Positions 10,009 to 62,557 of a DNA stretch of 64,000 nt are shown piece after piece. The notes under the pieces are model-generated. The model was given only the letters and a program-made list of their open reading frames with translations, was not told the origin of the DNA and ran no database searches. Position numbers and translations under genes: made by a program. Origin of the DNA: Octopus vulgaris (Eukaryota); assembly GCA_951406725.2 (NCBI GenBank), contig OX597828.1, forward strand, positions 48,174,001 through 48,238,000, written 5' to 3'. Each line of letters begins with the position of its first letter. Positions within the stretch are counted from its first letter, which is position 1.

Positions 10009-10329
10009 GCTTGGAGCAACATGAAATGAAGTGTTCTGCTCAAGAACACAATACTCCACTGATCTGAAAATTCAAACACCCAAACCTCAAGGCCATGTAC
10101 CTACACAAACACCCATACATACATTTACTGAATATACAAAATATATACAAGCATTGATATACAAAGATGGTCTTTGTATATGAATGTTTGTATATATTTT
10201 GTATATTCAGTAAATGTATGTATGGGTGTTTGTGTAGGTACATGGCCTTGAGGTTTGGGTGTTTGAATTTTCAGATCAGTGGAGTATTGTGTTCTTGAGC
10301 AGAACACTTCATTTCATGTTGCTCCGAGC
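10009..10329. repeat. Near-perfect long inverted repeat (159-bp arms, 3-nt loop)
   Basis: 10009-10167 is the reverse complement of 10171-10329 with three non-Watson-Crick positions. Confidence 0.97.
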
Positions 10330-33075: not shown

Positions 33076-33471
33076 GGCGCAGGAGTGGCTGTGTGGTAAG
33101 TAGCTTGCTTACCAACCACATGGTTCCGGGTTCAGTCTCACTGCGTGGCATCTTGGGCAAGTGTCTTCTGCTATAGCCCCGGGCCGACCAATGCCTTGTG
33201 AGTGGATTTGGTAGACGGAAACTGAAAGAAGCCTGTCGTATATATGTATATATATATATATAAGTGTGAGAGTATATGTTTGTCCCCCTAGCATTGCTTG
33301 ACAACCGACGCTGGTGTGTTTACGTCCCCGTCACTTAGCGGTTCGGCAAAAGAGACCGATAGAATAAGTACTGGGCTTACAAAGAATAAGTCCCGGGGTC
33401 GATTTGCTCGACTAAAGGTGGTGCTCCAGCATGGCCGCAGTCAAATGACTGAAACAAGTAAAAGAGTAAAG
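33076..33471 (+). mobile_element. Full-length CORE-like tRNA-derived SINE
   Basis: A-box TGGCTGTGTGG, B-box-like GGTTCAGTCTC, CORE-like CTTGGGCAAGTGTCTT, central TA/TG tract, GTAAAAGA tail. More than 15 copies or fragments in the window (e.g. 14745, 23988, 35735, 37600, 38220, 47515, 50555). Confidence 0.93.
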
Positions 33472-44447: not shown

Positions 44448-45060
44448 TGTGGCTGAGTGGTAAGTAGCTTGCTTATGAACCACATGGCTCTGGGTTCAGT
44501 CCCACTGTGTGACACCATGGGCAAATGTCTTCTACTATAGCCTCAGGCTGACCAAAGCCTTGTGAGTGGATTTGGGAGATGGAAAATGAAAGAAGCCTGT
44601 CTATATATGTGTGTGTGTTTATCCCCCAACTTATGTGTTATGCCCCTGTAACTTAGTGGTTCGGCAAAAGAGACCAACAGAATAAGTACTAGGCTTACAA
44701 AGAATATTTACATTTATTTACAATTGACGGATATTTGTCCTCATCTTGTTTGTTGTTAACACATTTCAGCTGATACCATCCAGCCTTCATCAGGTGTCTT
44801 AGGGAAATTTCGAACCTGGGTTCTCGTTCATAAGGTATTTTATGATGTTGTTATTATTATTATTATTATTCAGGTCACTGCCTGGAATCGAACTCGGAAT
44901 CTTGGGGACAAATATCCCTCAATTGTAAATGATGTACATAATTCCTCATCTCTTAAATACAGACTGTATTACAAAGAATATGTCCTGGGATCGATTTGTT
45001 CGATTAAATGTGGTGCTCCAGCATGGCCACAGTCAAATGACTGAAATAGATAAAAGAATA
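44448..45060 (+). mobile_element. CORE-like SINE interrupted by a 261-bp insertion
   Basis: The SINE sequence resumes after the duplicated TTACAAAGAATAT. Confidence 0.88.
44708..44968 (-). mobile_element. Short retroelement with pol III B-box, hammerhead-like motif and inverted end
   Basis: 13-bp TSD (44695-44707, 44969-44981); GAGTTCGATTCC; GACAC-CTGATGA-AGGCTG..CAGCT-GAAA-T-GTGTT; ~31-bp inverted repeat 44709-44740 / 44906-44936. Confidence 0.75.
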
Positions 45061-62164: not shown

Positions 62165-62557
62165 CGTAGGAGTGGCTGTGTGGTAAGTAGTTTGCTTACC
62201 AACCACATGGTTCCAGGTTCAGTCCCACTGCATGGCACCTTGGGCAAGTGTCTTCTACTATAGCCTCGGGCCGACCAAAGCCTTGTGAGTGGATTTGGTA
62301 GACGGAAACTGAAAGAAGCCCGTTGTATATATGTATATATATGTGTGTGTCTGTGTCTGTGTTTGTCCCCCCAACATCGTTTGACAAACGATGCTAGTGT
62401 ATTTACGTCCCTGTAACTTAGCGGTTCGGCAAAAGAAACCGATAGAATAAGTACTAGGCTTACAAAGAATAAGTCCTGGGGTCGATTTGCTCGACTAAAA
62501 GGCGGTGCTCCAACATGGCCACAGTCAAATGACTGAAACAAGTAAAAGAGTAAAAGA
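62163..62557 (+). mobile_element. Full-length CORE-like SINE
   Basis: Matches 33076-33471; an inverted copy lies at ~63302-63674. Confidence 0.93.

Follow-up and report, generated by a model that had tools for sequence, protein, structure and literature searches.

How does a short repeat with the promoter box of a tRNA-derived SINE come to carry the insertion hallmarks of a Penelope-like element (PLE)? The question arises at a locus of Octopus vulgaris, within a 64,000-nt stretch of DNA (the window, C15:48174001-48238000). A sequence-only reading had described an insert with a 13-bp target-site duplication (TSD) in a SINE, bearing on its minus strand a B box, an (AAT)n linker and a hammerhead short of ∼3 nt, its end repeated in inverted orientation and extended by a ∼32-nt tail; it had proposed an independent Pol III SINE that uses PLE rather than LINE machinery. 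All of these structural features were recovered (Table 1). The TSD is exact, and removal of the insert in silico restores a tRNA SINE of ∼350 bp, many copies of which lie in the window (e.g. 62172-62552 and 33085-33468). The independence of the SINE did not hold up. The best explanation is probably a different one, namely a decayed Penelope/Poseidon-type element with a tRNA-derived head as promoter, whose copies arise by internal priming.

Table 1. Features of the interrupted SINE and its insert (window positions; unit, numbering of the family repeat)
Feature	Position	Strand	Remark
Host tRNA-derived SINE, ∼350 bp, interrupted by the insert	44449..45060	+	Rejoined flanks align end to end with other copies
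Left target-site duplication, 13 bp	44695..44707	.	Exact repeat, TTACAAAGAATAT
Right target-site duplication, 13 bp	44969..44981	.	Exact match to left copy, TTACAAAGAATAT
Arm 1, 5'-truncated pLTR, unit ∼45-250	44708..44907	-	91% identity to family majority
tRNA-derived head, 3' half	44871..44907	-	A box lost at fold-back junction
B box	44885..44893	-	Match to consensus
(AAT)n/(AAC)n tract between head and start codon	44847..44870	-	
Family start codon position	44825..44827	-	ACG in window copy, ATG in most copies
Minimal type I hammerhead motif within first codons	44758..44798	-	Features match the min-HHR as described in PMC4209133
Arm 2, inverted, strongly 5'-truncated pLTR, unit ∼216-282	44903..44968	+	
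PLE tail, 32 nt, between the two family 3' ends; ORF sequence	44937..44968	+	

Arm 1 stops at the first ('short') 3' end of the family, ∼123 nt into the ORF described below, and overlaps arm 2 by 4–5 nt of microhomology. The inverted repeat measures 28 nt at 93% identity (44716-44743 versus 44903-44930), or 39 nt at 87% by BLAST. The host-SINE site 44695-44707 is also the target of independent insertions of the same polarity, one at L239 and six more exact tail-to-site junctions genome-wide (L327–L332; this site alone counted). TTA is common to the tail end and the target site, which suggests microhomology-assisted priming. Elsewhere in the window, 10084-10254 is a long near-perfect inverted repeat and candidate MITE, whose one other score is a spurious match to a plant miRNA.

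In the 2.8-Gb genome, one exact 24-mer taken from the unit has 8,224 matches and its reversed control none, so the unit is not a chance match. A genome search returned 3,431 candidate family members, and the median divergence from the family majority is 7% (211 arms). From the 24-mer count and this divergence, the true copy number is likely in the tens of thousands. No full open frame was found among the 150 best RT matches, and on that basis the family looks dead. At L129:2460-3300, contigs from runs labelled four other organisms (B, C, D and E) span the head, 3' UTR and ORF end, implying an architecture common to relatives; a depth step near the head start, a rough measure, is seen in three of the four.

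Judged by its sequence, the unit is the pLTR of an abundant, decayed element of Penelope/Poseidon type. The monomer (∼2.65 kb) comprises a 126-nt head + (AAT)n, an RT/GIY-YIG frame of 822 codons in the majority sequence, and a 3' UTR of ∼55 nt. An ATG 3' of (AAT)n opens this frame, which runs through the hammerhead and tail and, in further loci, extends past the tail into RT motifs. Hammerhead and tail make up its first ∼52 codons. In the full-length copies L129, L131 and L136, the frame closes with a GIY-YIG domain; ∼55 nt later the head recurs. Heads lie 3' of the ORF end in 25/27 copies and 3' of the 3' UTR in 26/28.

Native frames match RVT_1 at E 3e-6, which is below the cut-off (E 2.7e-6 for a 569-aa native frame), and homologues of ∼825 aa, with identities of 46–50%, pass it. 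For the C-terminal domain, hhalign reports 96.5% (E 1e-9) to a PF01541-positive domain, and the top three matches of the predicted endonuclease (EN) structure are all GIY-YIG nucleases—I-TevI (Z 5.0), T4 EndoII and Hpy188I—at low Z. PF01541 was not detected in a Pfam search of the element protein, Foldseek with the EN model gave no significant match, and a homologous-protein search with the N-terminal part of the protein gave none either. The features of an EN+ PLE are present: a single RT ORF, a C-terminal GIY-YIG domain, pLTRs with an optional tail, and hammerhead sequence features. Between RT and EN, the linker contains no CxxC, a motif present in the Neptune-type ORFs at L061 and L062; a Zn-finger-like motif in this position is described as marking Neptune/Nematis (PMC8557442). 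Identity between the element protein and a Neptune-type ORF is 28%. The element is thus assignable to the Penelope/Poseidon type of EN+ PLEs, a placement by sequence architecture rather than by a tree with named references.

Neptune-type elements, which emerged from a GIY-YIG family search, were rejected as a partner, having only (AAT)n in common with the unit. At L061:244-3506 and L062:287-3684 lies a younger PLE of Neptune type, in which many RT/GIY-YIG frames of 781 aa are open; a distinct open frame of 333–378 aa is located upstream.

The head is truncated in the window copy, and complete heads with both A and B boxes are present in other copies, as the sequence-only reading had anticipated. 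Both boxes fit the consensus. The head aligns colinearly, end to end, with a genomic tRNA-Arg (48/71 columns; score 64 versus a shuffle maximum of 45). The comparison covered 25 distinct tRNA genes of six amino-acid classes and so does not fix the source tRNA. The head keeps its boxes, and its cloverleaf does not fold. Rfam (window, 9 loci and one 200-nt stretch) returned no tRNA or hammerhead in the unit, and ARAGORN (19 loci) no tRNA. An (AAT/AAC) tract follows 168/183 heads, and variants of it follow most of the 15 others.

This tract is itself a landing site for the 3' ends of other retroelements and of the host SINE (L099, L118, L120, L121, L123, L147, L175, L189, L191 and L197). The retroelements are presumably Dong/R4-like LINEs. 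Arms ending in (AAT)n were considered as template-switch chimeras, an idea that was dropped, several being later LINE or host-SINE insertions into the tract.

Does the head act as a promoter? We examined where copies begin, using 97 arms picked by the anchor 24-mer alone (90 loci or stretches in the first 26 Mb of C1, out of the 8,224 matches; two or three segmental duplicates included). Their 5' ends fall in the ORF or far UTR (9), at −21 to −8 (4), −7 to 13 (24), 14–69 (13), 109–194 (16) and 195–200 (5), with 26 unplaced owing to insertions in (AAT)n. Among arms that reach position 13, 24/37 end within −7 to 13. The remaining 13/37 continue beyond the head, and 2/45 of the ORF-contiguous arms reach sequence upstream of it, indicating that some templates started elsewhere. 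Counted over the whole genome, a 22-mer at the A box has 4,356 matches, versus 804 for the neighbouring 22-mer of the 3' UTR, a 5.4-fold step. In L077, L138 and L260, non-homologous junctions start at precisely unit position 1, which precedes the tRNA +1 equivalent by six nt. L077 and L138, at unlinked loci, have one common ORF(514)-to-head junction, which suggests that a non-autonomous derivative with an internal deletion has been copied.

The majority ORF (2.47 kb) contains no T4 run, versus 2.8 expected from synonymous shuffles (P = 0.03). T4 density is 0.5/kb in decayed copies, compared to 1.0, 3.4, 3.8 and 4.7/kb in four Neptune-type ORFs; the depletion is modest, one control ORF being likewise low (1.0/kb). 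The preferred start of copies at the head, together with a frame free of T4, suggests a Pol III promoter, and initiation by Pol III at the head seems to us reasonably likely from these sequence patterns. ORF-to-pLTR junctions were also considered as Pol III terminators and dropped, since the donors are not at T runs and are biased by the query.

A bolder reading can be entertained tentatively. Here the element would be a coding retrotransposon with a captured tRNA-type promoter, the source, through internal priming, of tens of thousands of SINE-like copies of its 5' end, and also of genome-wide fossils of cleavage and template jumping. Transcription of the full 2.6 kb by Pol III would account for the absence of a T4 terminator, and full-length Pol III coding transcripts are on the sequence evidence a possibility to which we give somewhat less than even credence.

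The head may instead be a passenger: a tRNA pseudogene or SINE with an (AAT)n tail that entered the UTR of an ordinary Penelope element a single time and has travelled with it since, with transcription by Pol II or read-through and the 5' pile-up caused by RT stalling or snap-back at a hairpin. The head start does form a hairpin with the 3' UTR, at the boundary in question, and palindromes are described at the 5' ends of rotifer pLTRs, in PLEs for which the source reports no tRNA head (PMC3846280), so the pile-up could be structural. D. virilis Penelope has an internal promoter of Pol II type (PMC2377424), and Pol III processivity has been argued to limit element length (PMC10886601). The arms that pass the head also fit a passenger, as does the strand neutrality of RNA reads from a related organism; these reads are uninformative, being equal on both strands, with no start at the head or cut site, like read-through of embedded copies. 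Against a passenger stand the boxes, intact though the cloverleaf has decayed, the junctions exactly at position 1 (three loci, two of them one junction) and the T4-free ORF. On balance we consider a passenger head rather unlikely.

The second point concerns the hammerhead. Most copies retain an intact minimal motif, with the GAAAC-GUU core, a 5-bp stem I, an extra A before stem II and a palindromic AACGUU in place of stem III. The same features are described for the min-HHR of metazoan PLEs (PMC4209133). The window copy lacks 3 nt at the predicted cut site (∼44763), and this gap, which the sequence-only reading had noted in the one copy, proved to be a recurrent, family-wide deletion: 918 arms carry it versus 5,409 intact (14.5%). 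For comparison, a 3-nt slip in the adjoining perfect AAC repeat has 151 occurrences, making the cut-site deletion 5-fold higher, and at a site 20 nt away that offers identical 2-nt microhomology, a 3-nt deletion is found in 13 arms versus 6,963 (0.19%), making the cut-site deletion 78-fold higher. Among 147 arms not selected for the deletion, 117 are intact, 13 have −3, four each have −1, −2 and −5, and one has −4, the remainder being three insertions and one mis-parse. The 1-, 2-, 4- and 5-nt deletions are grouped at the bond where the 3-nt deletion also lies.

Inheritance of the deletion as a subfamily marker was rejected. No flanking SNP is convincingly linked to the deletion; two sites reach p 0.03–0.05 uncorrected, and sites 193/197 belong to the 3-nt deletion itself. 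At loci selected for the deletion, the partner arm is without it in 12/15 pairs (two rows share an arm and one partner is mis-parsed), which fits independence (binomial p = 0.47). Truncations were also found at this position, with 14/303 arms starting at 196–199 versus about 2.3 expected (mixed ascertainment; the cut is after 196). An adjoining 8-nt palindrome explains at least 5 of these 14 starts as plain fold-backs, judged by eye, leaving 7–9 cut-site starts (P = 0.003 for 8).

A route to the deletion can be envisaged. If the RNA were cut after GUU, the terminal two bases of the cDNA could re-anneal to the GU just before the cut, skipping 3 nt. Cleaved RNA followed by such an RT jump via the repeated GU is probably the source of the deletion in the window copy, and across the family the cut-site deletion likely records cleavage in vivo by the predicted hammerhead. 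Alternatively, RT may have slipped at the base of the stem II hairpin, or DNA at GT-rich sequence, with no RNA cleavage involved. This applies to the deletion only and is compatible with the other readings. It could draw on the 2-nt microhomology and the adjoining stable stem. Min-HHRs are described as cleaving poorly in vitro, in an account that gives no in vivo evidence (PMC4209133); for the anole element PAc, the cited account finds the HHR dispensable in vitro and no RNA-seq ends at its site (PMC11167929). We nevertheless regard slippage as improbable, given the excess over both the matched microhomology site and the perfect repeat, the deletions of other lengths at the same bond and the coincident peak of 5' truncations.

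How, then, are the short copies made? The 3' ends of the 97 arms fall at 236–256 (55), 269–297 (41) and 392 (1). They lie inside the ORF, mostly at about +117–130 and +151–164, so that two ends ∼33 nt apart dominate. These are two sites within a PLE ORF, and no 3' end of LINE or A-tail type was seen, in keeping with the PLE rather than LINE machinery proposed earlier. The inverted end likewise recurs: an adjacent inverted arm accompanies 47/97 arms, and 53/65 inverted pairs combine one short and one tailed end. TSDs of at least 9 nt, mostly 11–14, flank 39/65 pairs. Two internal RT start sites explain the short/tailed pattern in PAc (PMC11167929), and the pattern is also described for rotifer Penelope (PMC3846280, PMC8557442). 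By this analysis, the insertion structure of the family is PLE biology that is already known.

Extrapolating from the mechanism described for PAc (PMC11167929), the PLE protein would nick both target strands ∼12–13 bp apart and reverse transcription would begin at two internal sites, one per target strand. The two cDNAs would then join head to head via microhomology, yielding a short arm, a tailed arm and a TSD. If an RNA initiated at the head were primed close to its 5' end, the product would be a SINE-like copy of ∼250–280 nt, made with no separate SINE gene; the short copies would thus be due to known internal initiation of reverse transcription.

The window copy and most sampled copies show the solo or inverted arrangement, and one head-to-tail tandem array was seen. 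At L265:1200-3140, about nine ∼215-nt units of (AAT)n, hammerhead and tail, without the head, are repeated in tandem. The array mixes intact and 3-nt-deleted units, as in a retrozyme-like satellite derived from the family pLTR.

The model of an independent Pol III SINE with an acquired PLE 3' module and mobilisation in trans, for which one can cite the short, head-bearing form of most copies and the non-autonomous amplification implied by the deleted derivative seen twice (L077/L138), is largely refuted and most improbable, in that the head belongs to an autonomous element and is nearly always followed by the (AAT/AAC) tract or a variant, the tested sites reveal no diagnostic subfamily, and solo copies end at ∼+123/+156 within the ORF, less than the 172 nt described as necessary for PAc (PMC11167929). 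What survives of the SINE designation is the tRNA-derived head with A and B boxes; an independent non-coding element and a LINE-shared, simple-repeat or A-tail 3' end were not found.

A decayed PLE with a tRNA-derived head, our preferred reading, has much in common with known systems, as far as the cited accounts describe them. Like PAc of Anolis (PMC11167929), Adineta Pen2a (PMC3846280) and D. virilis Penelope (PMC2377424), the octopus element has a single ORF of ∼820 aa with RT and C-terminal GIY-YIG. Also alike in Penelope/Poseidon PLEs are a pLTR that includes the first codons, a hammerhead at the ORF start, an inverted 5'-truncated arm, a TSD and two 3' ends 30–40 nt apart. The start of the repeat differs: the octopus family has a tRNA-derived A/B-box head plus (AAT)n, whereas D. 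virilis Penelope has a LINE-like Inr/DPE promoter (PMC2377424) and Adineta a putative TATA/Inr (PMC3846280). The start codon precedes the hammerhead core by ∼35 nt, rather than lying within stem II, and the deletion hot spot at the cut site is unlike the compared Penelope/Poseidon PLEs. Relative to the min-HHRs described for metazoan PLEs (PMC4209133), the distinction is that genomic copies bear a cut-site footprint.

Other parallels concern the promoter. Schistosoma Sm-alpha (PMC6765202, PMC8490949) similarly has a type I hammerhead downstream of a promoter of Pol III type, but is described as non-coding and tandem, whereas the octopus unit is the terminal repeat plus ORF start of an autonomous PLE, mostly in dispersed inverted pairs. 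TRIMp3 elements (Cassandra, Helenus and Ajax; PMC10886601) have a small-RNA-derived Pol III promoter in the terminal repeat, probably from a SINE insertion; these are non-autonomous LTR elements, with autonomous partners that have been argued to depend on Pol II, while in octopus the coding element itself bears the head. Animal non-LTR retrozymes, described as derived from PLEs (bioRxiv 10.64898/2026.07.22.740005, PMC7229834), are likewise short hammerhead units related to pLTRs, to which the L265 array is comparable. We found no tRNA head in their accounts, and octopus copies are mostly solo or inverted pLTRs, not tandem arrays.

A full-text literature search listed no PLE with a tRNA-derived repeat, no PLE-mobilised tRNA SINE and no cut-site scars. 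This covers the text of papers; Repbase/Dfam entries or supplements may already describe the octopus family. Two features thus appear unreported, in that we did not find them in print: the tRNA-derived head at the preferred copy start and the recurrent cut-site deletion.

In the prevailing view, the only retroelements with Pol III promoters are short, non-coding ones. A coding PLE that has such a promoter, if true, would blur the divide between SINEs and autonomous elements, and would offer a route to SINE-like repeats without a separate SINE gene. Annotation pipelines would call the short copies SINEs. On cutting in vivo by PLE hammerheads, the PAc evidence, as cited, is dispensability in vitro and a lack of RNA-seq ends (PMC11167929). 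A countable deletion scar, coupled to a truncation peak at the predicted bond, would provide a cheap genomic test for any PLE family.
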